Below are positions 28,661-47,448 of a stretch of DNA of 55,486 nucleotides, piece after piece; the first letter of the stretch is position 1; each line of letters starts with the position of its first letter. The DNA is from a bacterium (GTDB taxonomy: Bacteria; Patescibacteriota; Minisyncoccia; Phycocordibacterales; GWA1-40-21). The stretch spans positions 1-55,486 of the forward strand of contig JBFZBC010000013.1 of assembly GCA_041308645.1 (NCBI GenBank), read 5' to 3'. Position numbers and translations under genes: made by a program. Under the pieces are notes generated by a model. The model was given only the letters and a program-made list of their open reading frames with translations, was not told where the DNA came from and searched no databases.

Positions 28661-31600
28661 TTATAAAGTGACTTCTACTTTATGAGTTTTCTTATCATTA
28701 ATTAGGTGTATCACATCTCCAGAAAGAGTCTCGCCATTCACAATTATTTTCTTATTTTCTTTTATTGAATTTTGATTATTTAAGATATGAATATTATATT
28801 TTGTATTTTTATGGGTATACAAAAGAGAAAAATTCTTCCAACTTTTTGGTATACATGGATTTATCTCCATTTTATTATTTCTGATTTTTATACCTAAAAT
28901 ACTTTCTAATATCGTACAGTACATTACTCCCGCTGAACCAGTATACCAAGTCCAACCTCCTCGCCCAGCTGGAGCTGGTTTAGCATAAATATCTGAAGCG
29001 ACAACATATGGTTCTACTTTATATAAGGATGCCTTTTTAATACTCTCTGATCTTTTGATTGGATTCACACTGTCAATAATTTTCATGGCTGAAAGAGGGT
29101 CATTTAACTTCGCATAAGCCTGAGCAGCCCATAAAGCTCCGTGATTATATTGGGCACCATTTTCTCTAACACCTGGTGGGTAATCTTTAATATACCCTGG
29201 ATCCATCGAGGTGTCCTTAACAGCAGGAAAAATCAATAATAATAAATCATTATTTTGGAAAAGATTCTTCATAACTGAATTCATCGCGATCTTACTTCTG
29301 TCAGTCCGTGCAACACCAGATAACACTGACCAAGACTGAGAAATAGAGTCTATTTTAAATTCCCTATTTGAAGAAGAACCTAAAGCGACTCCGTTGTCAT
29401 AAAAAGCTCGTTTGTACCACTTACCATCCCAAGCCTTTCTTTCTAAAGCAGTGGTTAAGTTTTGTAAAGTCACTTCAAATCTCTTGACTCTATCCTCGTC
29501 TCCACGATTTTTAATATATGGGGTAAATTTCTTAATAACCGCACATAAGAACCAGCCTAGCCAGACACTTTCTCCTTGCCCTTTTTCTCCTACTTTATTT
29601 AGACCATCATTCCAATCCCCATTACCTATAATAGGTAGCCCATTCTTACCGAAAACAAAAGTCTTTTCAATCGCTCTTAAACAGTGATCATATAAATCAT
29701 ACTTTTCCTTATCCACCTCAGCTATACCAGCCCAATTTGAATTACTAATAAAATCTAAAAGTGGACCCTTCAGATACGGAATTTTTTCATCAAGAATCTT
29801 AATATCATTTGTTATCTCCAAATAAAAACTTACAACGTAAGGTAACCACAATTGTTGATCAGAAAAGACTGTTCTAACTCCAAATGAATTATGTTCATGC
29901 CACCAATTTTGGACATCACCCTCCAAAAATTGGTGATGACTTGCCTTAAGAATAATTTCCTTGGTCACTTCAGGATTAGTCCAAACTAAAGACATGGAAT
30001 CTTGTAATTGATCGCGAAAACCATAAGCACCAGACGGTTGATAATAACCTGTCCGAGCCAGCAACCTAGATGACATTACCTGATGGATAAGTCTAAAATT
30101 AAATAATATATTTAGTGATTGATCAGGAGTTTTGATTTGTACTTTATTTAAAAGATTATTCCAATTTGACTCAATTTCCTTTAATGAAGAGTGATAATGA
30201 GTCAAACTTCGATATTTTGCTATAAGTTTATGGACAGCCTCTATGGAATATCCACCTCCTAATAGAGAAATAATTTCGATCTCTTCACCTGGATTCAAAG
30301 TAAAGAAGGTCTCAAGAGCAACGCAATGATCAACATCATCATGAATAATATTTGATAATTTCTCACGGTGCAGAGCGGCTGGATTATTCACATCTCCCCC
30401 TTTCCCAAGAAACTCCTCTCGATCATTGGTCACTAAGCTATTTCCAGCGTTAAGATCCACAAAAGCTAGGACTTTCTTGAAAGATTCGCTAAAAATATTT
30501 TTTACTATTATTGCTCCTGTTGTTTTATCTAGTGTCGTTTTTAAATAATCTTTATTATCTTGCCTATTTGCTCCACCAACAGACATTTCAAAAAATCCTG
30601 TTAATGATAGTTTTTTTATAATTTTAGTCGTATTAGTAAATTTGAATTTAACGATCTTAACATTATCTTCCACTGGTACATGGACAACCATACTTTGATC
30701 TATTCCCCGGCTTTTGTGTTCAAACTTCGTAAAACCTAAACCGTGGCTTACGATATAAGTATGAGGGCTCTTGATTGGTAAAGGTGTAGGGTTCCAAAAA
30801 TCTCCCGTCTCCTCATCTCTCAGATAAAAGATTTCACTGCTTCTATCAATCAGCGGATCATCAATACGTTTAGTTAAACGATTATCATAACTATCAGCAA
30901 ACCAAGTATAAGATGAACCACTTTCAGTAATAACGGTACCAATATTTTTATTAGCAATAATATTTGCCCAAGGGCAAGGAGTATAAAGTGATTTTTTATA
31001 ATTAATATTCATTTTATATTCCCGACCATCATCCGCAAAACCACCTAGACCGTTATAAAATGATAATTTATCAAGAGTTGGGTGTGTGTCTTTACTCAAA
31101 GTATTAACTTTTTTAGTGGTTTTTAAATACGGTACGGAAGCCTTAGAGTTTGATTTAGTGATTTCTAATATTTGTTGCTCAATTGTCCCAAGCTTACTAT
31201 CAATCACTACCCTTGATAGAAGGAGTAGATCTTCTTTATCAACTAATGATAGATGCGAAGCTTGAATATGGAAAACATTTCCTCTAATAGTCTTACTAAC
31301 TGTCGTCTGATTATAACGGATAAGAAAATCAACCTCATCCTCAAATGATTTAATATAGCTGGTTGGATATTCATTTAAAAGAACTAAATCATGAGCAATA
31401 CCTTTGTGTTTTAAATATTTATGACAAATAAGCATATTCTTTACCATCGCCATATCATTCATGTCATAAAAACGAACAATCAATATTGGTAGGTCACCTG
31501 AAATACCGATTCGCCACAGGGTTTGAACTTTTGCTTCATGACTGTCTTGTCTAAAACTTTTAATATCACTAGAATAATGTGGTGACAATAATCTAGAGGC

Positions 31601-34600: not shown

Positions 34601-37405
34601 AATAAAAACTAAAGCTAGTGCGATAATTTGAGTAGGAAACATCATGATAATAAACTCGCGTAATGTTCCTTTTAAATTTTTAGCTACTTCATGGGAGTTT
34701 TGCCAAAGTAACATATTTTTGTGTCTAAAATTCATTCTATATATTGAGATAGAAATAGCCCTCAAAGAAATAATGGCCTGATCAAGAAGAAAGATGAAAC
34801 GATAAATTATCTGCCATATAACCGAGTCTAAATTATCAAATAAATTATTTATCTTCATGAGCAGAGTCATCTCCTTTGGCCACTCAAACAACTTGATGAT
34901 GTAGGAAATAATAAATGAAGAACCGATAACCAATAGGATATAAACAAAAGAATAAATGTAATAATCATGGAAAAATAGATAAGAAAATACTAGGAAAAAA
35001 ATAGCAAAGATTGGCAAAGTACTTCTTCTCAAATTATCAAATATTTTCCATTTATCAGTGATATCAAAATTATTATTTTTTAACTTATTAAACTTTAGCC
35101 AACTGATAATCTGCCAATCCCCTCTAATCCAGCGATGCATCCTTAAAATATATTCCTTATAACTATCAGGAAAGCCTTCAAACAGATATATATCAGTAGC
35201 AAAACCTACTCTAGTATAAAGACCTTCAAGTAAATCATGACTTAAAACCTGATTCTCTGGGATTCTGTCCCCGATTGTTGCTTCCATAGCGTCCACATCA
35301 TAAATTCCTTTACCAAAAAACAAACTGTTATTGAAAAGATCCTGATAAACATCAGCTCCTGGACCAGTATATGAATCTATTCCAATGGAAAAAGAAAATA
35401 AACGTGAAAAGATTGTGGCACGAGCTAAGTTAAACTTTGTGGTCATCCTAGGCTGAATGATTCCATAACCACTGATTACTTTTCCTTTTTTCTCGTCCAA
35501 AATAGGCCTATTAAGTGGGTGGTCAATACAACCAATTAATTTTATAGCAGAATCTTTTGGTAAACGAGTATCTTCATCAATCGTTAAAACATATTTGATT
35601 GATGGTAGATCTTTAGGTAAAGCTTCAAAATAAGAAGTTGGTCTTATATTTCTTAATAATAAATTAAACTCTCTTAATTTACCTCTTTTTCTTTCCCAAC
35701 ACATGAAGGTATTCTCATTTGGATTCCAAATCCTTCGACGATGGAATATATAAAATCTGTCTACTTTTGCTTTGTATTTTTTATTTAATTCCCTTATCCC
35801 TTCATTCATTTGCTCCACTAAAATCTGATCAGATGTAGTGGTCTCCATCTTTGAATCCTTAAAATCCATCAGTAAAGCAAAATAAATATTCTGGTCTGAG
35901 TTACTTAGAAAATTTACTTCCAACCGCTTGAGTAGCTCCTGTGAATTTTTACTATCCCTTAGCATTGATGGTATGACAACAAAAGTACTCTGCCTTAATT
36001 CAACCCCTGAAGAAAGATCTAGCTGAGGTAACATACGAACTGGGATAAATGAAACGACAGAAAGATTTATCAGGTTAATTACTATGTCACAATTAAGAAT
36101 AAAGACTAAAATGAATAAAATAATAGAAAAAATATTTAACCCAAAAATATTTGGGAACAAAATAACTAGACTGGTGGTCAGAATTATATCTACTAGTAAG
36201 ATTAAGCCAAGATAAAAAAGAGGCGCCTTACTTAAAACAAAAGATCGTAAAATTTCTAGAAAAGGTTTTTGATAACCAATTTTTTTTTCTAGTTCATTAC
36301 GTCCTTCACCCACTAGGTAATATCCGATATGGTTCTCAGGATTATTATTCTCTTGAGAAACAACTGAAGTATGACACAAACGTAAAGCCAGCTTTGCGAC
36401 CTCAGACTCATAAACGCCTGCTCTATCACTGATTTTAACTAGCTCATTTCTATAAGCCGCTTGACTTGCTTGATCTAAAGTACCATAAGCTTCCGCTGGA
36501 TCCTTTAATAAGAAGGAATCCACAATATTTATATCTACAACAAAATTATCCCAACGTACTTGATTTATCCAACGCAAACTATTTATTATATTTAAAATTT
36601 GATTTGAGGTTTCTGTTTGATATTTATTTTCTATTTCAGCCAAGTTGGAAATATTTATCCCTTGTTTAAGTAAGTTTAGTTTTAACCATTTTACTATCGG
36701 TCTGGTATCTGGACCATATTGAGAAAGTCTTTGTAAAAGATTAAAACCTAGATTAACTGGAATAACACCATATTTACTTGCCAGATTTGATGTTATTTGA
36801 GAATAATTCTTTTCCTTATCTTTTGATTTCTTTTTTACTATTTGGTCAAACCAATCCTCGGCATCTTTATACTCATTAAGAGAAACAATGGCTTTATGCA
36901 TCAAACTCTCAGTGTTTTTTATTAAAATAATCCTTAAGAAAAAAGGTACAAAACTTAATTCCCTAATAGAAAGATGGGCCTTCGCTTGGTAAGCACGTAA
37001 AAAAGTATATAGCACTTCCTTATCGATTTTATATTCAGAGACCTTCAATAATTCGACTAAAATAGAATAAATTCTAGGAATATAGATATTTGGAGTTATT
37101 TCAATCTGAAATAATTTTTTAAAACCCTTATCAACTGATGTATTTGTAACATCGGAAATAGCACTATCAATAATGTAATAGTTATCAAATAAGTTTTCAA
37201 CTTCGTGAGTCAAATGCTTATTTAATCTAACTAAATTAATAAGTTTTTTGTAAGTATTCTTAGTTTGAGAAATACTCTTATTAATAAACGACAAAAAAGA
37301 CTTGGCCTTTTCTGGCTTAGAAACAATAAATACTTTGGCACCTAAAACGTGAGCTTTTTTTCTAACTTTATTAATAAGCTCAATATCTTCCTTGATAATT
37401 TTCAT
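28661..37405 (-). CDS. Cyclic beta-1,2-glucan synthase-like giant protein (membrane GT84-type transferase plus GH94 glycan phosphorylase-like C-terminus)
   Basis: 2914 aa. A TM cluster at about 395-460 is followed by a GT domain (TIDEDTRLP, HRWIRGDWQ). A second TM cluster at about 790-960 follows. The C-terminal (alpha/alpha)6 GH94-type region has GYYQPSGAYGFRDQLQDS, NGDWNDGLN and GGWTWYTGSAG. Confidence 0.85.
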   Translation of the reverse strand: MKIIKEDIELINKVRKKAHVLGAKVFIVSKPEKAKSFLSFINKSISQTKNTYKKLINLVRLNKHLTHEVENLFDNYYIIDSAISDVTNTSVDKGFKKLFQIEITPNIYIPRIYSILVELLKVSEYKIDKEVLYTFLRAYQAKAHLSIRELSFVPFFLRIILIKNTESLMHKAIVSLNEYKDAEDWFDQIVKKKSKDKEKNYSQITSNLASKYGVIPVNLGFNLLQRLSQYGPDTRPIVKWLKLNLLKQGINISNLAEIENKYQTETSNQILNIINSLRWINQVRWDNFVVDINIVDSFLLKDPAEAYGTLDQASQAAYRNELVKISDRAGVYESEVAKLALRLCHTSVVSQENNNPENHIGYYLVGEGRNELEKKIGYQKPFLEILRSFVLSKAPLFYLGLILLVDIILTTSLVILFPNIFGLNIFSIILFILVFILNCDIVINLINLSVVSFIPVRMLPQLDLSSGVELRQSTFVVIPSMLRDSKNSQELLKRLEVNFLSNSDQNIYFALLMDFKDSKMETTTSDQILVEQMNEGIRELNKKYKAKVDRFYIFHRRRIWNPNENTFMCWERKRGKLREFNLLLRNIRPTSYFEALPKDLPSIKYVLTIDEDTRLPKDSAIKLIGCIDHPLNRPILDEKKGKVISGYGIIQPRMTTKFNLARATIFSRLFSFSIGIDSYTGPGADVYQDLFNNSLFFGKGIYDVDAMEATIGDRIPENQVLSHDLLEGLYTRVGFATDIYLFEGFPDSYKEYILRMHRWIRGDWQIISWLKFNKLKNNNFDITDKWKIFDNLRRSTLPIFAIFFLVFSYLFFHDYYIYSFVYILLVIGSSFIISYIIKLFEWPKEMTLLMKINNLFDNLDSVIWQIIYRFIFLLDQAIISLRAISISIYRMNFRHKNMLLWQNSHEVAKNLKGTLREFIIMMFPTQIIALALVFILLSFHDSFSPYFTTIFWFISPLVAYHISRKEKVFQYKKSDTKLLRGVACRSARFFLELARRDNNYLIPDHYQEEPVTNSRSATSPTNIGCHLLGNFSAYDLGYISLSNLLWRLTSSFRSLDHLERYKGHFYNWYDICTLQPLNPKYVSSVDSANLLLNLITLKQGILDIIGKPIISKASFVGFEDILNSLIDDACLIMNERGVIKVDRKAVRGIYNEARQILIKIKIIDKLESIECVSKVLNDLTESNEKMKRIVSNLNLGISKGILSSIYSSIEHFNTLLKQQIDELAVFMFYNQDRLAKPVIRNEKRNSHLAKTLKNICSKLDIIPSLETLNGQLKCEIEDLFFINLIHSASLDNDEKENIEKWYHQVITHITHAQNHAIKIKNEFLHIVSLANKFVDETNFAFLYNEERGLFHIGYNAILEKIDNYYYDFLASEANAISFMAVLKNDVPIKHWFYLSRKLVQLDQKNISLVSWGGSLFEYLTSLIFFKVHKESLLGRTANVAINAHIKYGKKYKIPWGMGESAYSALDLNNNYQYQIFGHPELGLKRDLKDYLVVAPYTTVLSLAFKPKEATLNMRKMIKSKFMGRYGFYDAIDYGAKLEDGSQNSVGVPAKIYYAHHQGFSLQSLNNQVNHERVHSLFLSDPRVEALDTIFEEKIPSSIPARPIKSIDHLQAEYVTTGNNDVHVKQFIPLYTSYPRRAFISNGSYFVDVSNTGAGGSRVADINLTRFREDTVAETWGQFIYLYDENKNNLWSPTTRPTGVSLGKNKIEYFENKARFIKIHNNIESSLTIAIAPDSNVEFRILTLTNHHKEAKTLNITSYGEVCLAKSNDDLHHTAFQKLFIKSEYWKKYNALVYSRPNNVKRGTNLYLAHKVFTSLYNEGESIYTTNRNQFIDRGGTLSQPDIFSPTHHQGNPDLGYNFDPIFSFQNQIELKSNEAITITYVNIFGNSQEELINNLKKYSNQKHINQAIIKSDKHSYDVVNSLGISHELALSYQALASRLLSPHYSSDIKSFRQDSHEAKVQTLWRIGISGDLPILIVRFYDMNDMAMVKNMLICHKYLKHKGIAHDLVLLNEYPTSYIKSFEDEVDFLIRYNQTTVSKTIRGNVFHIQASHLSLVDKEDLLLLSRVVIDSKLGTIEQQILEITKSNSKASVPYLKTTKKVNTLSKDTHPTLDKLSFYNGLGGFADDGREYKMNINYKKSLYTPCPWANIIANKNIGTVITESGSSYTWFADSYDNRLTKRIDDPLIDRSSEIFYLRDEETGDFWNPTPLPIKSPHTYIVSHGLGFTKFEHKSRGIDQSMVVHVPVEDNVKIVKFKFTNTTKIIKKLSLTGFFEMSVGGANRQDNKDYLKTTLDKTTGAIIVKNIFSESFKKVLAFVDLNAGNSLVTNDREEFLGKGGDVNNPAALHREKLSNIIHDDVDHCVALETFFTLNPGEEIEIISLLGGGYSIEAVHKLIAKYRSLTHYHSSLKEIESNWNNLLNKVQIKTPDQSLNILFNFRLIHQVMSSRLLARTGYYQPSGAYGFRDQLQDSMSLVWTNPEVTKEIILKASHHQFLEGDVQNWWHEHNSFGVRTVFSDQQLWLPYVVSFYLEITNDIKILDEKIPYLKGPLLDFISNSNWAGIAEVDKEKYDLYDHCLRAIEKTFVFGKNGLPIIGNGDWNDGLNKVGEKGQGESVWLGWFLCAVIKKFTPYIKNRGDEDRVKRFEVTLQNLTTALERKAWDGKWYKRAFYDNGVALGSSSNREFKIDSISQSWSVLSGVARTDRSKIAMNSVMKNLFQNNDLLLLIFPAVKDTSMDPGYIKDYPPGVRENGAQYNHGALWAAQAYAKLNDPLSAMKIIDSVNPIKRSESIKKASLYKVEPYVVASDIYAKPAPAGRGGWTWYTGSAGVMYCTILESILGIKIRNNKMEINPCIPKSWKNFSLLYTHKNTKYNIHILNNQNSIKENKKIIVNGETLSGDVIHLINDKKTHKVEVTL

Positions 37406-37441
37406 GCTACTTGTTTATTATAACAGATTTTGTGTCGTTTG

Positions 37442-37450
37442 TGCTATAAT
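37442..37450 (+). promoter_or_regulatory. Extended -10 (TGCTATAAT) for the PMM-like gene
   Basis: TGCTATAAT is followed directly by ATGGTGACAATG. An ATG at 37460 would give a leader of about 3 nt. Confidence 0.5.
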
Positions 37451-37459
37451 ATGGTGACA

Positions 37460-38245
37460 ATGACTGTTTATAATACAAAAAAGACTTTTCAGAAAAAAAA
37501 GCTATTCGCTTTTGATGTTGACGGTACCATTACACCAAGCCGAGGCATAATGGATTCAGAAATGACAAAGCTTTTCCTAAAACTCCTAGAGTATAAAAAG
37601 GTGGCAATTATTACTGGTGGAGCGTTTGCTGATATTAACAGACAGGTTCTTCAACCACTTAACCTACCCAATCACCTGAAAAAAAATCTTATTCTTTTAC
37701 CAACGAATGGTGGTGGTCTATGGGTATTCAATAATGAGTGGCAAGAAATTGCCTCACATAAATTTACGGAAGATGAAAAACAAAAAATAACTGAGGTGTT
37801 AATAGAAGTAAATAATGCAGATCAAAAATTAAAAAACAATATTTGCTATGGTCAAAAAATTCAAGATCGTGAATCTCAAATAACATATGCAGCATTAGGC
37901 GAATATGCACCAATTGAACTCAAATTAGCTTGGGACCCAGACCTAAAAAAAAGAATTGCATTACAACACAAACTACAGAGGAAACTACCAGAATTTGAAG
38001 TAAAAATTGGCGGAAAAACTTCTATTGATATTACACCTAAAGGTATGGACAAGGCCTATGCGATTAAGAAAGTTATGGAGTATTTGAAACAACCTAAGGA
38101 AGAGGTTTTGTTCATCGGCGATGCGGTTTACGAAAACGGCAACGATTTTCCCGTCCAACAAGCTGGGATTGAAACCATCAAAGTCAATGGTCCCGAAGAA
38201 ACCAAGGAAAGATTAATAAAATTACTTACAAATATTTCTTCCTAA
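37460..38245 (+). CDS. HAD-IIB hydrolase, phosphomannomutase (eukaryotic PMM)-like
   Basis: Motif I is FAFDVDGTIT. The cap region and the late motifs GGKTSIDITPKGMDK and FIGDAVYENGNDFPV run parallel to PMM/Sec53. The start is ambiguous (37451 or 37460; the track uses 37430). Confidence 0.65.
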   Translation: MTVYNTKKTFQKKKLFAFDVDGTITPSRGIMDSEMTKLFLKLLEYKKVAIITGGAFADINRQVLQPLNLPNHLKKNLILLPTNGGGLWVFNNEWQEIASHKFTEDEKQKITEVLIEVNNADQKLKNNICYGQKIQDRESQITYAALGEYAPIELKLAWDPDLKKRIALQHKLQRKLPEFEVKIGGKTSIDITPKGMDKAYAIKKVMEYLKQPKEEVLFIGDAVYENGNDFPVQQAGIETIKVNGPEETKERLIKLLTNISS

Positions 38246-39243
38246 AAAATACTTTTGCCCATATTCCAATAGCGAGAATCATTTTTCTCTACCAACATCC
38301 AATACCACCACTCCGCCCCCCAAAGATACGCCCGAGAAGCGCCTAAACGTTTCGCATAGGAAATATTTTCTAAAAGACGATCTAAACTTAAAGTTTTTTC
38401 CATTTCTAAAATGGAGGTTTCGCTAGGTAAATAATCACCAAACCACGGCTCGGCCTGTAATTCCGAAATGAAAAAATCAGCGGTTTTTTTCCCCCATAAC
38501 CATGCCCGCAATTTATAATAGGCCGCCGGTAACCAATCATAAGTAATAATCATTCCTCCGGGTGTCCGCACTGTTCGATAAAGAGTCGCGCCCAAAATAT
38601 CCCCCGCACGTGTCGCTTCATACCAGGTAGACATCTCACCACTATCAGAAATTATGATGGGATGCTTATTATCAAGATTCCTAACTAGCATCACCTCAGC
38701 TTCCACCGCCGATAAATCAAAAAGAAGACATTCACCAAATTTAAACTTAATAAATGGTTCATTTTCTACCTGCCAAAACTCCAGTGCTGGATGATTCCGA
38801 TAACGCTTCACCGTTTCCTCCACATAAGACAATAATGATTCTTTTTTATCATTTAGATCTATCTGTTTTGACCAGGCTGGTAAGTGACATTCTGGCCAGC
38901 GAGGCACTTTCTGCCCAACCACTAAAATTACTTTGCCTCCACGCTCTGCGGCTTGATCCAATAAATAATCCACTGTGGTAAAATTATAAATTCCCCTTCT
39001 CTCCTCAATTCGGTCCCAAGGTGCCGATAAACGCAAATAAGTTGGTTTCAAATCATCAAGAATAGAAATATAAGCCTCCTGCCAATTAAGCCCCAATTTT
39101 TCAGCATAACCAATATCAAAACTTATACCATATTCTAAAGGATACGTTTTAAAAGAAAAAGACCATAATAATCCATAAATAAATAAAATTACTATTAATA
39201 AATAAAATAAAATTTTAAGAAATAAATTAGCATTCTTTTTCAT
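38242..39243 (-). CDS. Membrane-anchored clan GH-A (TIM-barrel) glycoside hydrolase
   Basis: N-terminal TM anchor. FWQVENEP is the acid/base NEP motif, and ISELQAEPW is a candidate nucleophile Glu. Overlaps neighbours by 4 nt at both ends. Confidence 0.6.
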   Translation of the reverse strand: MKKNANLFLKILFYLLIVILFIYGLLWSFSFKTYPLEYGISFDIGYAEKLGLNWQEAYISILDDLKPTYLRLSAPWDRIEERRGIYNFTTVDYLLDQAAERGGKVILVVGQKVPRWPECHLPAWSKQIDLNDKKESLLSYVEETVKRYRNHPALEFWQVENEPFIKFKFGECLLFDLSAVEAEVMLVRNLDNKHPIIISDSGEMSTWYEATRAGDILGATLYRTVRTPGGMIITYDWLPAAYYKLRAWLWGKKTADFFISELQAEPWFGDYLPSETSILEMEKTLSLDRLLENISYAKRLGASRAYLWGAEWWYWMLVEKNDSRYWNMGKSIF

Positions 39244-40148
39244 TGAAAATAAATGAGACCGATTATTATTAATAAAATAGCACTAATTTCCATAAATATT
39301 TCCCGACGGGTAAAATATTCAAAAAATATTTTCGGCCATAATTTTGTAAATATATAAATAATAACAAAAACTAAAACATATTGAATACCCGCCAAGCCAT
39401 TAACTACCGTCACACTACCAACCGCGATCGCATATTGAATACCTAACGCGCCCAACACACCCAGAATTTTATCTAACACTATAATAAAAATTTTATGTTT
39501 AGAAACGGTGGAGTTATTATCAACTAAAACTGGAGGATGAATTATCTCTTTAAAGACATTTGGCCAACATAAAATAATCAGACCAACAAAACCAATAGAA
39601 CCCTTAGTCCAAACCAAACCAGTTATAAAGGGATAAATTTCATAAATATGTTTAGCCGTCACATGTGATAAACCAAACAAAATACCAGCCAAAGTGGCCC
39701 AAAAAAAACCACGATGAAAACCTTTATATTTCTGACTCTTTTCAAAAGATAATAAAAAACAGGCAACGATTAAAAAAACTAAACCAATTTTGGTAGAATC
39801 TACTAAACTTTCATTCAACAAAAAAACTGAAAAAACATAAGTAGCTAAAGCAACAATACCACCAATAAACGGTGCAATATGACTTGTTTCGCCTCCACGT
39901 AAACCAATATACATGAGACATAAACCAAAACCAAAAGCCAAGCCTGAAATAATCGCCCAAATAAAATCCCCGGTAGTTAAAAATTGACTCCATGGGACTA
40001 GCAAAAAAACCACTAAGAAAAAAATCGTGGAATAAAAAGCATAAATAATCGGTTTTTTTACTGATTTTGTTAAAATATATTTATCTAAAATTGACACAAC
40101 GGCTAATAGTAAATAGCCGATGACAGCAAAAATTAATGCGGTGATCAT
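39240..40148 (-). CDS. DMT/EamA-like 10-TM transporter
   Basis: 302 aa with about 10 hydrophobic helices in two 5-TM halves. Confidence 0.55.
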   Translation of the reverse strand: MITALIFAVIGYLLLAVVSILDKYILTKSVKKPIIYAFYSTIFFLVVFLLVPWSQFLTTGDFIWAIISGLAFGFGLCLMYIGLRGGETSHIAPFIGGIVALATYVFSVFLLNESLVDSTKIGLVFLIVACFLLSFEKSQKYKGFHRGFFWATLAGILFGLSHVTAKHIYEIYPFITGLVWTKGSIGFVGLIILCWPNVFKEIIHPPVLVDNNSTVSKHKIFIIVLDKILGVLGALGIQYAIAVGSVTVVNGLAGIQYVLVFVIIYIFTKLWPKIFFEYFTRREIFMEISAILLIIIGLIYFQ

Positions 40149-40159
40149 ATTATATTAAT

Positions 40160-41491
40160 TTAATTATTTTCATTTTTATTAAGTATGTTTTTTATATTAT
40201 ATGTTCCATATTTAGGTGCCTCAACAAAACCGTTTACTGCCGCTTCTGCTAATTTACCAGAATTTATTAAATCCAATAGCCAATTACTAGTAACACTAGG
40301 GATTCCCTGATCGATTCCACTTCCGATAGAGAGTAACCATTCTCGATTAAACCTCTCTTGTGATCCGAGAGGTGGAGCTATTAAAATAGGTAAACCAAGT
40401 GCACTATAAAAAGAAAGTTCACAGGGTTTTGTCCATAAAATATCTGTAAGTTTTATTAAGGAGTTAAATTTTCTAAAATATTCAAACTTATCAGCTTCAT
40501 AAAGAATAAAAATATCTCCTTGTGCTAAAGAATCAATTAAATCAGCACTAGCTATATTATCTAAAAATCTATTTCTTACCAATTCTGAAATACCAGCAAT
40601 TAAATTCAACTTGATCATACCGGTTTTTATTAGAGGAGCGAGAGAATTTATGATCTTTTCGCCTATCTCTACTTGGGCACCAGCCCCTCCCACAGCAAAA
40701 GTTAAATCAATAGGAATAATAGCGGTATCACTAGGTACTAAATATTCTGAAACTAATGCTTCATATTTTTCTCGAAAAATTCCTTTAGGATCAAGTTTCT
40801 TAACTCTACGGCCCAATGATTCCTTAGTAATAGATAAACTATCCCTTTCACCTTGTAATTCTAATGGTAAAGGAAAACCAGTCATAATTATTTTTTCTTC
40901 CCTAATACCATACATCAATAATCTTTCAAAAACCCTTTGAGAAGGGGCTAGATAAATAATTCGACTATTAGCTGGCTTAAGAGGAACCCAGGCCCGAGAA
41001 ATATCAGTATCAGTACATAAACAATATATTTCACCTTTATAGCCATGCTCTTCTGCAAATATAGCTGGTATAAAAAAAGATGTTAAAAAAGATAAAGGAT
41101 TATTGTTTAATTTATCAATCAAATCCCTACCGAGACCCGCTTTAATCATACGATATATTTGTTTTGTCTGAAGTGTTGGTTTTGATAAATCACGCTTGGG
41201 ATAAAAAGACTCTATCCTTTGAACATAATCCATGATTCCAAAAATAAAACTACCAATCAAAGGTAAACTGCGAAGACGAGAGATTATTTCATAAATTCTT
41301 CTGGTTGCCGCCCAACTTAATTTATCTTTTTTAGGGATAGAAGGATAATTATCTGCCGGAATTATTTTAGATGGCAATATTTCCCAACCAGGTGGTATCA
41401 TAGCTAAAAATTCTAATGGTTGAACCGCTCTTTGATGACCATAACCCATATCAACTGCTACAATATAAGCTTTTGATTGTTTTTTAAACAT
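40160..41491 (-). CDS. GT-B glycosyltransferase, MGDG-synthase/UgtP (GT28)-like
   Basis: N-terminal VAVDMGYGHQRA resembles the GGGH motif. C-terminal WTKPCELSFYSALGLPILIAPPLGSQERFN resembles TKPGG...PGQEE.N. ATG 41491 is preferred over the TTG at 41512. Confidence 0.55.
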   Translation of the reverse strand: MFKKQSKAYIVAVDMGYGHQRAVQPLEFLAMIPPGWEILPSKIIPADNYPSIPKKDKLSWAATRRIYEIISRLRSLPLIGSFIFGIMDYVQRIESFYPKRDLSKPTLQTKQIYRMIKAGLGRDLIDKLNNNPLSFLTSFFIPAIFAEEHGYKGEIYCLCTDTDISRAWVPLKPANSRIIYLAPSQRVFERLLMYGIREEKIIMTGFPLPLELQGERDSLSITKESLGRRVKKLDPKGIFREKYEALVSEYLVPSDTAIIPIDLTFAVGGAGAQVEIGEKIINSLAPLIKTGMIKLNLIAGISELVRNRFLDNIASADLIDSLAQGDIFILYEADKFEYFRKFNSLIKLTDILWTKPCELSFYSALGLPILIAPPLGSQERFNREWLLSIGSGIDQGIPSVTSNWLLDLINSGKLAEAAVNGFVEAPKYGTYNIKNILNKNENN

Positions 41492-41546
41492 AGTATGCTT
41501 TTTAAAAACCAAATCAATTATAAACTATAGTTAGATATATATCAAT

Positions 41547-42470
41547 TTAGATTTCAACCTGACCAAGGAATTCACCATCATTAATATAAATATTATTATT
41601 AAAAACTCTAAAATCTGGTGCTTTACCACTATATAAAACCTGTAATTTCTTTTCGGGGTTGTTTTCAGCTTCTACAGCGTAAACCTTATCCCCCACTGAA
41701 ATGATAATTACCTCTGACTCACCAGGGAAGAAATCTAGACTGACTATATTTGATCCAAATGAATATACCTTTAATTGACTTTGGAATTTTATTTCATTAA
41801 TAGATTCCTCCCAAAAAATACTGGGGGTGGAATTAGCACTGCCGTTCCAGCCTATATAAATATCCCCGCTTTCATACCATATTGATAAATACCAATTTTT
41901 AATAGGATTTTCTTTTGTGCCAGGTGCATATTTTGTTGTTTTATCTGTTGTGGTTGATAAGACAGAGATATATTTTTCTAAAGTTAAATCTTCGTCAAAT
42001 AAATTTTTAATAATTTTATAATTAGGATTTAATTTTGTTTCATGAATCGTTGTAGTACTCAATATTTTTTCAATTTCTAATGATTTCTTTATTTCTGTAA
42101 TATCAATACTGCTCGGCAACATGAACACTTTACTTTCTGTTACTTTATTAGCAAAAACCTTGATTTTATTTGACCAATCATTATAACCATCTTTTTTCAC
42201 CGAAACAGCATACACGCCAGGTTTGAGATTTTTTAAAAGATAATTTCTTGTAAAAAAACCGGTTGTTTCTTTTATCTTGCCATTCACATATAGTTGCGAA
42301 TCAGGTTGCATCGAATTAATAAAAAGACCACCTGTTGCTAAAATATTCCAACCTTCACCTAAAATATTACCATTAGCGTAAAAAACAATAGTTGGTGCCA
42401 GTACCAAAAAAAGTAATATAAAAACTACTACTGTAATCCTTCTTTTAATAATTGAAACTTTATTTTTCAT
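41547..42470 (-). CDS. PEGA-domain membrane-anchored protein
   Basis: N-terminal TM. LKPGVYAVSVKKDGYNDWSNKIKV is a PEGA-type motif. Confidence 0.6.
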   Translation of the reverse strand: MKNKVSIIKRRITVVVFILLFLVLAPTIVFYANGNILGEGWNILATGGLFINSMQPDSQLYVNGKIKETTGFFTRNYLLKNLKPGVYAVSVKKDGYNDWSNKIKVFANKVTESKVFMLPSSIDITEIKKSLEIEKILSTTTIHETKLNPNYKIIKNLFDEDLTLEKYISVLSTTTDKTTKYAPGTKENPIKNWYLSIWYESGDIYIGWNGSANSTPSIFWEESINEIKFQSQLKVYSFGSNIVSLDFFPGESEVIIISVGDKVYAVEAENNPEKKLQVLYSGKAPDFRVFNNNIYINDGEFLGQVEI

Positions 42471-42476
42471 TTTAAA

Positions 42477-44006
42477 TTAACGGTGTTTTGGTGTTACCCA
42501 AAAACCCATATACCTACCAAACATTAACCTAGTTTGGGCATCCAAGGCTGGGATAGCTCCAAAGATTGTAACTGTTAATGGTACAAAAATCCACTGAACT
42601 ATCATAAAGATATTCTGCTTCCAAGATATTCCATCTGGCCGTGGTGGTAAAAATGAAATAGAAATAGCTGCTGAAGTGACCAAGCCAAACATGGCTAAAA
42701 TCATTAAATTTCTGGTGAGAATTGGTAAATTGTAAGACAAAACAGTGCTTTGAAAATGTCCCCCACCAATTATGATGGGCAACCAGCCGAGTAAAAAAAT
42801 CATTATAGGATTTGTAGCCCAAGACCAAAATCCTTCAATTAAGATAAAAGTAAATCTGAACTTTTTATAAAAAGGGATTTTTTTGTTTTTTATAAAACCA
42901 AACAAAGCATACGGCATATTCTCCACTCCCCACGCCCACCGCCTTTGCTGTTTATAAATACTCTTTATTGTCTGCCAGAGATTGTAATCAAGATTGGCAT
43001 CCATAGAAATAGGGTAAGACATTGGCACCACTTGATAATCACCATTACGCACTAAAAATGAGTTCCAAAAAATACGCGAATCCTCAGACACCATATTTTT
43101 TTGCCAATAACCCATTTCAAACAGATTTTTAAAACAAAGAGAGTGAGAGGAAAAAGTGGAAAGCCTCTCCGGACGCTCCTGTTGGATCATTTGCCAAAAA
43201 GTACCAGAAACGGCCACTACCCGTGACAGAGCTGGAGCTTGCCAAATATTGTTATGATAAAAAGGCACTGGCTGGAAAGATGATTTGAATGGTTCCTCAG
43301 CTGTTAAAAAATTCCAAGTTAAGCATTCAAAATACTGCGGATAAATAACTGTATCTATATCAAAAGCGGAGACCAAAACATCTTCATATTTTATTTGATT
43401 TTTATCTAAAATTTTTCGTCTTGCCTGTTCGGCGGCATATGCAATATTTGAACCCTTACCTCCCATCTCCCCTGATAAGCCACTAGGATGCCTAGTAATT
43501 AAAAAATGCCCAAACTGTGTTGCATAATATTGACGCATCTTCTCAGCTATTTCAATGGCCATCTGGCCAGCCCTCTCTTCAATGGCTAAAATAACAATAA
43601 ACTTTTTCTTGTCATATTTTGAAGAAACCAAAGAATCTAAACTGTAGCGAATCACTAATTCACTTTCATTATAAAAAGGTAAAAGAACCATTTGATGAAT
43701 ATGATCATATTTTAAATTAACAAGCATCTTTCTCCAATCCAAATTCATATTGTGCTTCATCTTTTTCCAATTTTGCCTCAGATGGATAGATAAATAAACT
43801 GTCTTTAAAAGCCAATAAAGATCAAAAACAATGATAAAAATTGCCGCCCAAAAGGGCAAAAAATATGAAATGATAATTGTACCCAAAATTGTTGTCCAGG
43901 ATAAAAACCCCGGCAATATTTCCAGTAACCGATAAATCAGCCAGTCTGTTCCCTGCAAATCTGTCGCCCGCCCTACTCTATAATATGGCGTGTTTTTATA
44001 CTCCAT
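42477..44006 (-). CDS. Processive membrane family-2 glycosyltransferase (cellulose/chitin-synthase-like)
   Basis: QQRRWAWG is the Q(Q/R)xRW motif. SAFDIDT and SEDSRIFW are the D and ED motifs. N- and C-terminal TM bundles are present. Confidence 0.8.
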   Translation of the reverse strand: MEYKNTPYYRVGRATDLQGTDWLIYRLLEILPGFLSWTTILGTIIISYFLPFWAAIFIIVFDLYWLLKTVYLSIHLRQNWKKMKHNMNLDWRKMLVNLKYDHIHQMVLLPFYNESELVIRYSLDSLVSSKYDKKKFIVILAIEERAGQMAIEIAEKMRQYYATQFGHFLITRHPSGLSGEMGGKGSNIAYAAEQARRKILDKNQIKYEDVLVSAFDIDTVIYPQYFECLTWNFLTAEEPFKSSFQPVPFYHNNIWQAPALSRVVAVSGTFWQMIQQERPERLSTFSSHSLCFKNLFEMGYWQKNMVSEDSRIFWNSFLVRNGDYQVVPMSYPISMDANLDYNLWQTIKSIYKQQRRWAWGVENMPYALFGFIKNKKIPFYKKFRFTFILIEGFWSWATNPIMIFLLGWLPIIIGGGHFQSTVLSYNLPILTRNLMILAMFGLVTSAAISISFLPPRPDGISWKQNIFMIVQWIFVPLTVTIFGAIPALDAQTRLMFGRYMGFWVTPKHR

Positions 44007-44129
44007 TTGTGCTTAATATTACGCATTTTTGCCAAAAAAACAAGGTAAAATTGTTTCTTCATAGACCAATCATATTAAAAAATAGATAAAATAACAATCA
44101 ATTTTTTCCATTAATTTAATAACGTGTAC

Positions 44130-44279
44130 AGAATAATACAAGAAAATATCCTACTTCACAGACAAGGGAATCTCCACATAGAAAGTGGTACCTTGACCAC
44201 GACCTGCTGATTCGGCCCAGACCTTACCACCATGACCTTCTACTATCTTCTTTACAATATATAAGCCATAACCGGTACT
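44130..44279 (-). pseudogene. Orphan duplicate of the histidine kinase 3' end (direct repeat copy A)
   Basis: 147/150 identical to 44989-45138. It still encodes the same 42 aa (STGYGLYIVKKIVEGHGGKVWAESAGRGQGTTFYVEIPLSVK) plus the stop, but has no upstream kinase body. Confidence 0.9.
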
Positions 44280-44343
44280 AGTCACTTCTACGACTACCTC
44301 AACAAAAACTACCGTTAACAATTAAAAAAAATAATCCACTGTA

Positions 44344-44892
44344 TTAAAAAGTCGCAAATTTATTTACTAAGACAGATGATGACTGCGTTTTTTGATTCTT
44401 TAAGATCAAATCAGAATATGAAAAAGGAACAACTTTTTCTGAATCAATCTTTAATAATTTTAATACTTCATTAAACTCTATAAGGCCTTTTTGTTTAGAA
44501 ATATTTTTAATAACTGTTTCTAATTCTAAAAAATTTCCCAATCTCATAACCTTATCTAAATGAATTCTTGTATTTTTATATATCCACAATTTTCTTAATT
44601 TATCCACAATACACAAAACTTTCTTTTGTTTTAACAAATCTTTTTTTTCTTTTTTGCTAATTTCTTGAATCTCATACTTCGACTCTTTCCGACCAAGGAT
44701 CTCATCCCGGCTGTAAGATATTTTCTGTATCTCTTTTCCATTAATCTCTCTAATTTTTTCTTTATAAATTCCTAGACTAAGGTAATAATCAGTTTGATGC
44801 ATATCATACTTGTACACAGCTTGAGTTTTTTCTATGATATTTATAATACCATCAATATCCTGTATTTTTACCTTTATCTCAAAATTTTTCAT
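44344..44892 (-). CDS. CYTH-domain protein (class IV adenylate cyclase CyaB / triphosphatase family)
   Basis: N-terminal FEIKVKI is an ExExK-type motif. QTDYYL, then KLRKLWIYKNTRIHLDKVMRLGNFLELE, with a C-terminal FSYSDLI. The order parallels CyaB. Confidence 0.72.
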   Translation of the reverse strand: MKNFEIKVKIQDIDGIINIIEKTQAVYKYDMHQTDYYLSLGIYKEKIREINGKEIQKISYSRDEILGRKESKYEIQEISKKEKKDLLKQKKVLCIVDKLRKLWIYKNTRIHLDKVMRLGNFLELETVIKNISKQKGLIEFNEVLKLLKIDSEKVVPFSYSDLILKNQKTQSSSVLVNKFATF

Positions 44893-44988
44893 AATTTACT
44901 ACCCTTAAAAAAATCAATTCCTTGTGCTGCTCCTGTAAAAAAGGCTTTGCCGTGTTTCTCTACAAGATCCTTCAAGTCTAGAATAAAT

Positions 44989-45138
44989 AGAATAATACAA
45001 GAAAATATTCTACTTCACAGACAAGGGAATCTCCACGTAGAACGTGGTACCTTGACCACGACCTGCTGATTCGGCCCAGACCTTACCACCATGACCTTCT
45101 ACTATCTTCTTTACAATATATAAGCCATAACCGGTACT
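44989..45138 (-). repeat. Direct repeat copy B (authentic 3' end of the histidine kinase gene plus 21 nt)
   Basis: See 44130-44279; the offset is exactly 859 bp. Confidence 0.9.
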
Positions 45139-46611
45139 TTGAACATTTACTCTCAATGATTCTTCACCTCTTCCTCCCTCTTTAAATAGTTTTCCTTTAT
45201 CATCCTCAGATAAACCTATTCCACTGTCTATTATAGAAAAAGATATTTTCTTTCCATTAGTTTTAAGATTTACTTTTACAAAACCGGAAATTGTGTATTT
45301 TATAGAATTATCAATCAGATTTTTTATTACTTGAGTCAAGTGTAATTTATCAATCTTAACAAAGATCTTTTCTTGTGGCAGATTTATTTCTAGATTAAGA
45401 CCTTTCTTCACGGCATTATCTTTAAACATTTCAGCTATCCCTCTCACAAATTCAGTAAAATCCGTTTCTTCAAAATTATATGTCATCTTACCACTTCTTA
45501 AGCTTGAAGCATGAAGAATTTCTTGGACCATGGCCACCGCCTGATTATCAGAGTCCATCCCTTGCTCCACAATCTCCTTAACTGGACCTGATACTTCACC
45601 CACATCCCCTTCTAAAATGGAAGAAAAAACCATCTTTGACTTAGTAAAGAAACCTTTAACTTGATGAGTGATAAAGCGGATCAAAAGTTGTTGATTATTA
45701 TTGGCAATTTCAAGTTCCTCCCGTAAGGCCACCTCCTTTTTCACACTTCGAATAATGATAAGTCCCAACCAACCAGAAATAACCAAAGTAATAGCGGTCA
45801 AAATTCTATTCACATTACTCTGGATAAAGAAAAACTGTGCCCCAATAAGTATCAGTAACGCCCACACAAGTGCCTGTGTCGCCAGTAATTTAATATCAAA
45901 GGTTTTAAACCGTACAATCATATAAGCTAGGAAAGCCATAAATATGACCATCCCAAATAAACCGTAGAATTCAATATTATAATTTTCTAAATAACTGGCA
46001 ATATACCCAAGAGAAAGAAACAATAATAAGAATAATTCCAAACCAATAGCCATAAAAATAGCCTCTTTTTTTGTTATATTTATTTTTTTCCACCAACTGG
46101 ATATTAATAACCCTAAAATACCAGTCATCGCCAGCCCACCAACAATATAATAATAAGTAACCAAATAAATATTATTGATTGCTTCACAATTAACTAGGTC
46201 AAAATATTTAATATTTAAAATTGTTGGTGTTAATATTAGAATTGGTAACAAAGGAGAAAAGATTAGTATTTTCTTAATTAGATTTAAATCTCTTTGAAAC
46301 ATGAAGACATAAAAAAAGTAAAGAGTAAGTATCGCTATTAATGCTGTCAAAAGCGGAAAAAACGCCCAAACAAAAGAAATAATCAAGGAGGTGTCATTTA
46401 CCCAAGCAATTAAATTAAAAAATACCCAAACTGAGAAAAAAACAGAGATAAATAGTAATATTTTACTAACTAGATTCTTACTTTTTACGTAGACAAATAA
46501 TCCTAAAATCAGTGCGATCAATACTGCTGGAATATGAGTATAATAAAGCAATCTCGGTGCTTCACTCGTAATTATTAAGTATGTAGGATGCCAAGATTCT
46601 ATACAATACAT
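45010..46611 (-). CDS. Sensor histidine kinase with N-terminal multi-TM sensor; no response regulator nearby
   Basis: About 8 TM helices, then a DHp (RFITHQVKGFF). The HATPase_c N, G1 and G2 boxes are NLIDNSIKYT, DSGIGL and STGYGLYIVKKIVEGHGG. Confidence 0.9.
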   Translation of the reverse strand: MYCIESWHPTYLIITSEAPRLLYYTHIPAVLIALILGLFVYVKSKNLVSKILLFISVFFSVWVFFNLIAWVNDTSLIISFVWAFFPLLTALIAILTLYFFYVFMFQRDLNLIKKILIFSPLLPILILTPTILNIKYFDLVNCEAINNIYLVTYYYIVGGLAMTGILGLLISSWWKKINITKKEAIFMAIGLELFLLLFLSLGYIASYLENYNIEFYGLFGMVIFMAFLAYMIVRFKTFDIKLLATQALVWALLILIGAQFFFIQSNVNRILTAITLVISGWLGLIIIRSVKKEVALREELEIANNNQQLLIRFITHQVKGFFTKSKMVFSSILEGDVGEVSGPVKEIVEQGMDSDNQAVAMVQEILHASSLRSGKMTYNFEETDFTEFVRGIAEMFKDNAVKKGLNLEINLPQEKIFVKIDKLHLTQVIKNLIDNSIKYTISGFVKVNLKTNGKKISFSIIDSGIGLSEDDKGKLFKEGGRGEESLRVNVQSTGYGLYIVKKIVEGHGGKVWAESAGRGQGTTFYVEIPLSVK

Positions 46612-46614: not shown

Positions 46615-47313
46615 TTATTTAATTATAATTGGTACAAGCATGGTGTCAACCTTCCAATACTCACAATTTTTAGGGGGTGATACCTTACACACACCACAAT
46701 TAATGTTTTCATTTTTAAAACCACTTTCTTTTAGCTTTTCCAAATGAACCTTACCAAACTTTTTTATTTCATCAGAGTAATAAGTAAATACGCCACCCTT
46801 TTTTAATTTTTTATAAGCAAACGGAAAAAAGAAAAAATGATTTTGATAAAGCTCCTTGTCGCTTAATGGGTATGTATCAAAAAGAATACCGTCTAACGAT
46901 CCATTAGGTATTTTATTTATCATCTCTTCCCAAAAACCCTCAAAAACCTGGACTTTATGTTTAGCTTTTTTTCCAAATTCTCTAGCTCTTTTTGCGACTT
47001 CTCTATTTGCTTCTATTATTATATGTTTTTTTATATCTTCTTTTTGAATAAATTTAGCTGATATTGCCATACCAAAACCAAGTTCAAGAATAATCCCCCC
47101 TTTTGAACATGCAATCTTTGCTAACTCCTTCATATATGGAGTTTCCCAATCTTCCATTACAGCGCAACCAAAAATTTTAAGATCATGCTTAGTAAATTTT
47201 GCTGGAGCTTTTAACCACTCAGATTTTTTAAAATCAATTTCCCCACTGTTTGATTTTTTGTATTTTTTTTCCCAATCAGGAATTTGTGATAAAAATTTTT
47301 TTGTTTTCTTCAT
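46615..47313 (-). CDS. Guanidinoacetate N-methyltransferase (GAMT/RMT2)-family SAM methyltransferase
   Basis: VMEDWETPYMKELAKIACSKGGIILELGFGMAISA, HKVQVFEGFWEE, DGILFDTYPLS, LKKGGVFTY and SGFKNENI are collinear with vertebrate GAMT as I recall it. Start at ATG 47313. Confidence 0.78.
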   Translation of the reverse strand: MKKTKKFLSQIPDWEKKYKKSNSGEIDFKKSEWLKAPAKFTKHDLKIFGCAVMEDWETPYMKELAKIACSKGGIILELGFGMAISAKFIQKEDIKKHIIIEANREVAKRAREFGKKAKHKVQVFEGFWEEMINKIPNGSLDGILFDTYPLSDKELYQNHFFFFPFAYKKLKKGGVFTYYSDEIKKFGKVHLEKLKESGFKNENINCGVCKVSPPKNCEYWKVDTMLVPIIIK

Positions 47314-47319
47314 TTTCCT

Positions 47320-47328
47320 ATTATACCA
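47320..47328 (-). promoter_or_regulatory. Extended -10 (TGGTATAAT) plus 6 nt plus ATG for the GAMT-like gene
   Basis: The minus strand reads TGGTATAAT-AGGAAA-ATG(47313). Confidence 0.55.
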
Positions 47329-47448
47329 CCCAAAAGTTAAATGACAATCAAAATTCCTCATCTAAAATAAACCAACAAAATAATATGACGGTTATTTCCA
47401 GTGGTATTTACAGGAGAAAATTAATAAATTAAAAAAGAGGAAGTAAAA

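Follow-up and report, generated by a model that had tools for sequence, protein, structure and literature searches.

Organization of the kinase-CYTH locus

The subject of this analysis is a duplicated gene end in contig JBFZBC010000013.1 of a patescibacterial metagenome-assembled genome (MAG). The whole 55-kb contig (55,486 nucleotides, GC content 34%) is referred to as the window; homologues of its proteins were mostly annotated as Paceibacterota or Patescibacteria. All genes of the repeat region are carried by the minus strand and are described here in the direction of transcription. A gene encoding 248 amino acids (46615..47361), to which the Logan gene table assigns PF27704 (guanidinoacetate N-methyltransferase-like), lies directly upstream of the gene for a 533-amino-acid multi-pass membrane sensor histidine kinase (45010..46611; HATPase_c, E=6e-24). 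This pair is kept in relatives, whose upstream genes encode 244-257 amino acids. The kinase gene is followed by the remnant of a radical-SAM gene (44889..44988), an intact gene for a 182-amino-acid CYTH-domain protein (44344..44892), and a 64-nt spacer (44280..44343) that runs from the CYTH stop to an orphan, displaced copy of the kinase 3' end (44130..44279). The native upstream region of the next gene (44007..44129) comes after this copy and contains a promoter-like site at 44097-44069, downstream of the copy. That next gene (42477..44006) encodes a conserved, 509-amino-acid family-2 glycosyltransferase-like protein; it opens the downstream block and lies outside the radical-SAM/CYTH cassette.

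The kinase has more than 1000 homologues, mostly in Patescibacteria, of which the closest full-length ones are 62-63% identical, and an exact-sequence search found the kinase and CYTH proteins of the window on no other contig. No response regulator was present among the neighbouring genes scanned around the kinase. Within approximately 10 kb of the locus there was no recombinase, integrase, transposase, insertion sequence (IS) or tRNA, which extends an earlier, sequence-only reading of the window that had reported the absence of a recombinase. The CYTH gene is probably co-transcribed with the kinase, as no terminator was predicted between them.

The two copies of the kinase end (copy A, 44130-44279; copy B, 44989-45138) are direct repeats with an offset of 859 bp and are identical at 147 of 150 positions. 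These values, first given in the sequence-only reading, were reproduced by our alignment. Copy B is the functional 3' end of the kinase gene and comprises its final 42 codons (45013-45138), the stop codon (45010-45012) and 21 nt beyond it (44989-45009). The same 42 residues and a stop codon (44151-44153) can be read from copy A, which still matches the C-terminal part of HATPase_c (E=2e-9); the body of the kinase is absent upstream of it, and it is out of frame with CYTH and without a convincing start. Open reading frames and alignment thus agree with the earlier assignment of copy B as the genuine kinase end and copy A as an orphan. Agreement extends to the three mismatches, two of them synonymous and the third behind the stop: position 44150/45009 is noncoding, 1 nt past the stop codon, position 44178/45037 changes a Tyr codon (TAT in copy A, TAC in copy B), and position 44184/45043 a Thr codon (ACT in copy A, ACG in copy B). 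The longest exact stretch common to both copies is 95 nt. Outside both repeat ends the identity drops at once to background, and self-comparison of the window revealed no second long near-identical repeat. Host sequence is thus repeated on either side of the insert, with one copy continuous with the kinase gene and completing it, as is characteristic of an insertion scar.

No inverted repeats were found at the ends of the insert. A 7-nt sequence, TTATTCT, is repeated at the junction between copy B and the insert, its two copies being separated by AT. The spacer is unlike the kinase sequence upstream of copy B, and homology to relatives stops at 44342; judged by this loss of similarity, the end of the spacer at copy A is a non-homologous junction, either illegitimate or circle-closing. 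Two ways of producing the repeat pair from within the genome were considered and rejected. A second, paralogous kinase remnant (as present in L001, one of the compared loci introduced below) made similar by gene conversion does not agree with the sharp ends of identity and the lack of kinase similarity upstream of copy A. A tandem duplication followed by deletion would take at least three events with coincident end points. As a separate observation, the two synonymous differences of copy A (ACT, TAT) directly follow a hairpin centred on GGTACC (44185-44200, minus strand) and add T residues to it. A simple scan called a terminator-like site here in copy A and not in copy B; the stem is weak (5 pairs) and may be due to chance.

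The cargo is a truncated radical-SAM/CYTH pair

The 709-bp interval between the repeats had been described as carrying only the CYTH gene. This description needed revision, as a radical-SAM gene contributes its last 32 codons (44889-44988) to the start of the interval. The 96 nt from copy B to the CYTH start encode these residues and are not a spacer: in tblastn searches, the remnant was 68% identical over 31 amino acids to residues 247-277 of the 278-amino-acid radical-SAM protein of L004 (E=4e-8) and 56% identical over 32 amino acids to that of L009. At the nucleotide level, homology to the radical-SAM/CYTH genes of L004 and L005 (74% over 647 nt) extends from 44986, two bases from the edge of copy B, to 44342, just past the CYTH stop. 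The first ~246 radical-SAM codons are gone, with the break right at the edge of copy B. The stop of the remnant and the start of CYTH share an ATGA overlap, as in relatives. No further homologue of the radical-SAM gene was found elsewhere in the window. By homology, the cargo is accordingly a truncated radical-SAM/CYTH pair and not a lone CYTH gene, and the loss of 246 codons requires at least one additional event.

The CYTH gene matches PF01928 with 28 bits (cut-off 23.2) and scores 35.8 bits against the CyaB equivalog model TIGR00318, under the cut-off of 57.95. An alignment with 19 homologues showed that the invariant residues E5, K7, R48, K69, R100, E123 and E125 are kept, and on the strength of these matches the window gene is a member of the CYTH superfamily. 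The 278-amino-acid radical-SAM protein shows no more than weak similarity to the PA0069/Rv2578c (SplB-like) families of radical-SAM proteins. Neither it nor the CYTH protein matches PADLOC, the CYTH family was absent from viral contigs in our scan, and in the searchable literature we did not find CYTH domains and radical SAM together.

A second, unrelated radical-SAM/CYTH segment was noticed in L009 (830-4051). It consists of a 346-amino-acid MoaA/viperin-like radical-SAM protein, a 180-amino-acid CyaB-like CYTH protein, a 153-amino-acid protein and a thymidylate kinase; the repeats that flank the segment are a 102-nt duplication (93%) of the SET-domain gene's 5' end. The viperin-like matches of L009 correspond to the pVip models of PADLOC.

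The kinase-CYTH neighbourhood is conserved in related Patescibacteria

For comparison, 80 genome loci and 80 metagenome loci were retrieved with the CYTH alignment; compared loci and contigs are labelled with L-numbers. The closest CYTH homologues (58-68% identity) stand in SET-kinase-radical-SAM-CYTH clusters with a 278-amino-acid radical-SAM protein and a 182-amino-acid CYTH protein. These two genes form a conserved pair with a 4-nt ATGA overlap in many Patescibacteria, and the pair also occurs in Eggerthellaceae, Oscillospiraceae, Acidobacteriaceae and a Micrarchaeota MAG (pair loci: L009:6168-7549, L012, L014-L016, L018, L020, L026, L028, L029, L031-L033, L041, L046 and L051-L053). The kinase family lies directly upstream of the pair in L009, L012, L014, L016, L032 and L115, and in L013 and L034 the kinase is followed by CYTH without the radical-SAM gene. 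On this comparison, the position of CYTH beside the kinase family is a conserved neighbourhood and not a new juxtaposition. The earlier suggestion that the event places a cyclase-type gene behind an orphan kinase consequently needs correction: since kinase-radical-SAM-CYTH is already conserved in relatives, the event would not have newly joined CYTH to a naive kinase. The same occurrence in several Patescibacteria indicates that donors with the cassette beside this kinase family exist.

A tblastn search detected no orphan kinase end downstream of CYTH in L009, L012 and L016. We also considered whether contigs of relatives end after CYTH owing to a copy of the kinase end. This was rejected, as L004 ends in a terminator hairpin followed by an Illumina adapter. 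The untrimmed adapter (AGATCGGAAGAGCGTCGTGT, L004:2509-2528) directly follows the hairpin and is present in a public assembly, a metagenome contig of the European Nucleotide Archive (ENA).

Host-derived direct repeats recur around the cassette

Self-comparison of each locus revealed that the radical-SAM/CYTH pair, or CYTH alone, stands between direct repeats of 42-211 nt in numerous independent lineages, and that in each lineage the repeat is a duplicate of host sequence adjoining the cassette. Such brackets were present at 13 of 111 distinct testable loci versus 47 of 3870 shifted control placements. With a more sensitive test they were detected at 24 of 119 distinct CYTH loci versus 3 of 155 control placements (Fisher p=3.5e-7). 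The recurrence spans approximately 20 other Patescibacteria genomes obtained with different pipelines, including contigs of 360-650 kb.

The duplicated host sequences vary from site to site. The last 88-127 nt of rpsG are duplicated in L015, L094 and L099, where the cassette separates rpsG from fusA and CYTH continues in frame into the second copy; to our knowledge, the adjacency of rpsG and fusA is universal, and it serves as the empty site for this family. The last 76-88 nt of a HisRS-like gene are duplicated in L027 and L111, and kinase 3' ends in L034, L115, L032 and the window. The first 105 nt of rsmA are duplicated in L041 and the first 67 nt of an M16-peptidase-like gene in L040. In L052, L113 and L114 the duplicate comprises a promoter/5' untranslated region, either alone or together with the first ten codons of the gene that follows, and in L007 a terminator hairpin. 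The repeats often end exactly at the host stop codon or begin at the host ATG, and the ends of the inserts are not fixed relative to the radical-SAM start or the CYTH stop.

Several of these sites were of interest beyond the duplication itself. At the rpsG site (L015:6993-8591, L094:93-1783 and L099:3550-4393; proteins P0132, P0138, P0141 and P0148), the duplicated C-terminal tail of ribosomal protein S7 (...MAEANKAFAHFAW) stands in frame on the C-terminus of CYTH and yields proteins of 196 amino acids. This S7-CYTH fusion is kept in several species, and its final five codons differ from rpsG only synonymously. L094 and L099 contain an additional partial S7 tail 41 nt past the rpsG stop, which resembles nested scars. 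In L123 (780-3169), three kinase-like 3'-end copies bracket radical-SAM/CYTH and another segment; the first copy is interrupted by ~30 nt with an in-frame stop and may represent a pseudogene, an insertion or a sequencing error.

Segments of 0.7-3 kb that lack CYTH are also flanked by direct repeats of 52-385 nt (L097:3731-7019, L098:2082-5370, L100:5053-8609, L028:7824-9645, L037:1392-2222 and L034:1976-4260). Because of these segments, bracketing may be general for accessory genes of Patescibacteria. In the searchable literature, we did not find such brackets described in bacteria of the candidate phyla radiation.

The repeats could, in principle, be the attL and attR products of site-specific recombination by an enzyme encoded elsewhere, either in an integron-like manner or by an integrase acting on satellites, with the cassette bringing along a target end of its own. 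The frequent coincidence of repeat ends with the host stop or ATG is compatible with such a mechanism, as is the integron-like appearance of two arrays with similar repeats, described in the next section. In opposition to this, the repeat is a different piece of host DNA in each lineage, 42-211 nt long, and no motif or hairpin is common to the bracket repeats across lineages. No integrase or transposase was found in or beside the bracketed inserts examined, with the exception of an IS200-like gene upstream of the kinase in L115. None of the brackets contains a tRNA according to ARAGORN, Rfam has no match for the 211-nt structured repeat of L026, and the cassette family is absent from viral contigs. 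We consider site-specific recombination very improbable as the source of the brackets.

More specific mobile elements were likewise rejected. A transposon or IS does not fit the lack of a transposase and of inverted repeats, the variable length of the duplications (42-211 nt) and the insert ends, which are not fixed. Islands and satellites that are inserted by an integrase at the 3' ends of tRNA or protein genes resemble the locus in that a gene 3' end is duplicated as direct repeats and the target is restored. They differ from it in that no integrase is present here, the insert measures just 0.7-2.5 kb, and the targets include 5' ends and intergenic sequence. At the window locus itself, with an insert of 709 bp, no tyrosine or serine recombinase lies within ~10 kb.

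Cassette arrays accumulate at the kinase end

In L034 and L115, arrays of cassettes are present between the seven-transmembrane (7TM) kinase and a HIT-family gene (L034:7847-15030; L115:3992-8214). With Q denoting the kinase end, the L034 array reads kinase[Q]-CYTH-NUDIX-[Q]-MNT/HEPN-[Q]-263 aa-hydrolase-Mur ligase-Ddl-[Q]-MNT/HEPN-[Q]-HIT, and that of L115 reads kinase[Q]-AbiEii-[Q']-rSAM-CYTH-[Q]-AAA_14/DUF4143-[Q]-HepT-HIT, where rSAM stands for the radical-SAM gene. A copy of the kinase 3' end, 54-159 nt in length, follows each cassette. As these two arrays suggest, the kinase end is a hotspot that collects successive cassettes, many of them of toxin-antitoxin type. The radical-SAM/CYTH pair, being found alongside toxin-antitoxin cassettes, may itself be a mobile, possibly conflict-related module.

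The arrays are similar to those of integrons in their small, promoterless cassettes of one orientation, the similar repeats between them and the fixed hotspot beside a conserved gene. Unlike integrons, they have no intI, attI or attC-like structure, and the repeats are the end of the neighbouring host gene and vary by genome. An integron was rejected, because no integrase domain was found in the neighbours and the repeats are host coding or intergenic sequence without a common structure. Separately, L115 contains a 410-nt duplicate of the 3' part of AbiEii (26-435 versus 4678-5087) beside the IS200-like gene.

Orphan copies resemble alleles of functional genes

The divergence between functional and orphan copies was analysed for the 11 bracket pairs that overlap host coding sequence. 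In total, these pairs differ by 38 synonymous and 10 non-synonymous changes (pS 0.215, pN 0.014, pN/pS 0.07). Neutrality was rejected (p=3e-18), as was duplication in place with constraint on the functional copy alone (p=1e-10). The result was unchanged after dropping the fused L015 case. Some pairs, such as those of L115, reach pS values of 0.3-0.6 with a nearly unchanged peptide, and orphan Q2 of L034 is 94.3% identical to the functional kinase end of L032 versus 92.5% to its own functional copy. In their pattern of substitution, the orphan copies look like alleles that evolved inside functional genes, as expected if donor DNA brought in one of the copies, or if that copy had been the resident end until it was displaced.

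These data bear most directly on an origin in situ, in which an accident of replication or repair (template switching, or the capture of a homology-free 709-bp fragment at a staggered break) duplicated 150 bp of the target, so that both copies would stem from one chromosome and the orphan would now be decaying. Such a model accounts well for several features of the window: the insert begins inside a gene (at radical-SAM codon ~247), as a random fragment would, copies A and B are 98% identical, and the TTATTCT repeat is located at the junction of copy B and the insert. It can do without a donor that already has the cassette at this site, and it could explain the first arrival at new sites, for which it is the main rival. 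It is contradicted by the mainly synonymous differences of the 11 pairs, by the L115 pairs, which accumulated synonymous changes while their protein stayed almost unchanged, and by the orphan that is nearer to the functional allele of another genome. In addition, the TTATTCT copies are parted by AT and do not form a simple microhomology joint. On balance, duplication in situ seems unlikely for the window.

Where sister species have the same site with the same repeat boundaries (L113/L114, L015/L099/L094 and L027/L111), the copies are 95.5-100% identical within a genome and 76-88% between species. By this comparison the copies are homogenised within genomes, through gene conversion or through repeated loop-out and re-integration within a species. 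The sequence-only reading had held that an identical arrangement with diverged repeats in all relatives would point to an ancient fixed duplication. As the exact window site occurs in no relative, the comparison does not apply to it; at other sites, brackets are indeed shared, with copies that remain 95-100% identical within a genome, so a high identity is no proof of a recent event.

The same observation is an argument for an old duplication that was retained for a function of the orphan, be it that of a 3' element, a terminator or a translated peptide, with gene conversion keeping the copies alike. The in-frame S7 tail on CYTH at the rpsG site, whose last codons differ only synonymously across species, could be interpreted in this way, and so could the terminator-like hairpin and T-run that the two synonymous changes create in copy A only. 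In the window, by contrast, the orphan does not share the CYTH reading frame and lacks a convincing start, and the five-pair hairpin is weak. The duplicated sequences are moreover unrelated between sites (coding ends, starts, promoters, terminators), and no single function fits them all. Retention of an old duplication for a function of the orphan is quite improbable.

Support from independent assemblies

The glycosyltransferase block is carried by two independent Logan assemblies. L172 (SRR28346265, 28 kb) is 100% identical to window positions 44180..36477, including the copy A-specific bases at 44150 and 44178, and ends 30 nt past 44150. L173 (SRR28346267) corresponds to 44160..42112 with 7 mismatches (99.7% identity over 2 kb), five of which fall within 29 nt at the junction of copy A and the downstream sequence (44150, 44130, 44125, 44124 and 44122). 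It has the copy-B base at 44150, and its first 30 nt, at which the contig ends, are those of copy B. A stop inside the repeat is expected of a 31-mer graph if the sequence is repeated or strain-mixed. The junction between copy A and the downstream sequence is thus reproduced independently and is polymorphic between strains.

An assembly artefact would require that the true order is kinase-Q-glycosyltransferase and that the assembler threaded a loop through an 859-bp circle or a strain variant sharing the 95-nt core. A short-read assembler must indeed phase across this exact stretch, both Logan contigs break inside the repeat, and at least two strains that differ at the junction are present in the sample. 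Nevertheless, any assembler output of the junction between spacer and copy A implies real molecules, an 859-bp circle would be without a replication function, and an independent assembly joins the distinguishing bases of the copies to their flanks. Some 20 assemblies from different pipelines show this architecture again, and its presence on contigs of 360-650 kb in other projects speaks against a systematic artefact. This explanation appears extremely improbable.

The repeat as a probable scar of homology-anchored insertion

Taken together with the recurrence of the brackets and the allele-like orphans, the 150-bp repeat is probably the scar of a homology-anchored insertion, either of the Campbell type or by homology-facilitated illegitimate recombination. 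The sequence-only reading had proposed Campbell-type integration or a cassette that restores the gene end it targets. The comparative brackets support both as a general pattern, and the parts of that proposal that needed correction were the cargo and the neighbourhood.

In the proposed sequence of events, DNA of a close relative would carry the kinase 3' end joined to a radical-SAM/CYTH cassette and would recombine with the resident kinase inside the last 150 bp. The second joint would be non-homologous, arising through closure of a circle followed by a single crossover (Campbell-type) or through an illegitimate end-join. The kinase would remain intact through copy B, with the cargo directly behind it, and copy A would be displaced downstream as an orphan. 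The radical-SAM gene may have lost its first ~246 codons before, during or after the insertion, which would leave CYTH as the only intact cargo gene. The direct repeats could later loop the cassette out, leading to its loss or to its re-mobilisation as a circle with one repeat. Natural transformation would be a plausible route, given that com genes are widespread in Patescibacteria and that a Saccharibacterium integrates transforming DNA by homologous recombination via ComEC (PMC10633639).

A number of points weigh against this explanation. The donor must already have had the cassette at the same gene, and the first arrival at new sites is left unexplained. The exact coincidence of the radical-SAM break with the repeat edge requires a pre-deleted donor or a second event. 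The window has just 3 differences, and two synonymous changes would arise by chance with p=0.06-0.15. The homogenisation within genomes could be plain gene conversion without mobility. The closest kinase homologues (62-71%) have unrelated genes downstream, as do L001, L003 and L011, where other genes follow the kinase; the region behind the kinase is evidently variable. The comparison with kinase loci lacking the insert, suggested in the sequence-only reading, yielded no single-repeat site among the relatives of the kinase or the glycosyltransferase, nor was an empty site found in which kinase and glycosyltransferase genes adjoin each other. L174, whose glycosyltransferase is the closest to that of the window (93% at the amino acid level), has an NYN-domain gene upstream of it, and homology of L174 to the window starts only at 44049. 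Finally, the kinase-side Logan contigs end inside the kinase body, which leaves the junction of copy B and the radical-SAM remnant without independent support; this junction and that of spacer and copy A rest on assembly and not on reads. The window's own event is a single, putative instance.

Relation to known systems

Campbell-type insertion-duplication is a single crossover between the chromosome and a circular DNA that carries a segment of homology, and it is exploited in suicide-vector mutagenesis. Its product, host-Q-insert-Q-host, is that of the window: the gene stays intact if Q reaches its end, loop-out is possible and no dedicated recombinase is needed. The difference is that we infer a natural event with 150 bp of homology, a unit of 859 bp and a putative circle and donor, and that the pattern accompanies one cargo at many host sites unrelated to each other.

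A second parallel is provided by the arrays that C-terminal displacement builds in Rhs and contact-dependent inhibition (CDI) toxins, reportedly described by Jackson et al. in 2009. These arrays and those of the effector-immunity modules of the type VI secretion system (T6SS) share with our loci a conserved gene, cargo and displaced orphan 3' fragments, and successive events lead to arrays, as in L034 and L115. Homologous or homology-facilitated illegitimate recombination with DNA from relatives has been proposed for them (PMC5361080). In contrast to the toxin systems, the displaced end here encodes the same peptide, and there is neither a variable toxin tip nor an immunity logic; the anchors are a sensor kinase, rpsG, rsmA and others, and the cargo is radical-SAM/CYTH or genes of toxin-antitoxin type. 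Polymorphic-toxin displacement was accordingly rejected for the window, in which the orphan and functional ends encode identical 42 residues and the cargo, a radical-SAM tail and CYTH, is no toxin-immunity pair.

Homology-facilitated illegitimate recombination during natural transformation is known from Acinetobacter, Pseudomonas stutzeri and Streptococcus pneumoniae (PMC5361080, PMC3240628). It imports DNA that has no counterpart in the recipient by means of one homologous anchor and one non-homologous joint, which fits the sharp junction between spacer and copy A. The classical cases differ in that they usually delete recipient DNA and do not duplicate the anchor. For Paceibacteria this process is a proposal; the only demonstration of transformation through homologous recombination concerns a Saccharibacterium (PMC10633639).

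The scar is thus of a known kind, that of insertion-duplication, homology-facilitated illegitimate recombination or displacement. What appears to be new is its recurrence in Patescibacteria around one conserved cargo and toxin-antitoxin cassettes, together with the allele-like orphans, the homogenisation within genomes and the arrays; the searchable literature yielded no account of it. Patescibacteria have tiny genomes with few recognisable mobile elements, and the gain and loss of their accessory genes is poorly understood. The recurrent and statistically supported signature would link their gene gain to homologous and illegitimate recombination of transforming DNA. The model predicts excision circles, single-repeat alleles and a dependence on recA and comEC. 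For annotation, orphan gene-end fragments would be better read as recombination scars than as pseudogenes of lost paralogues.

As a tentative extension, which we regard as possible though doubtful, Patescibacteria might possess a recombinase-free cassette system. Its modules would carry the end of the adjoining host gene as a portable homology arm, loop out as circles, spread by transformation, re-insert by single crossover in conspecifics and build integron-like arrays at hotspots such as the 7TM kinase end, with the window repeat representing one active unit. Radical-SAM/CYTH, MNT/HEPN, AbiE and HepT toxin-antitoxin pairs and ATPases may be among the modules.

Other features of the window

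Three features outside the repeat region were recorded. The segments 13576-13960 and 20652-21033 form an old paralogous pair with 68% nucleotide identity. An internally repetitive gene is located at 16385-16822. A 2914-amino-acid open reading frame with GH94/glycoamylase domains (28661-37405) lies upstream of the glycosyltransferase block.

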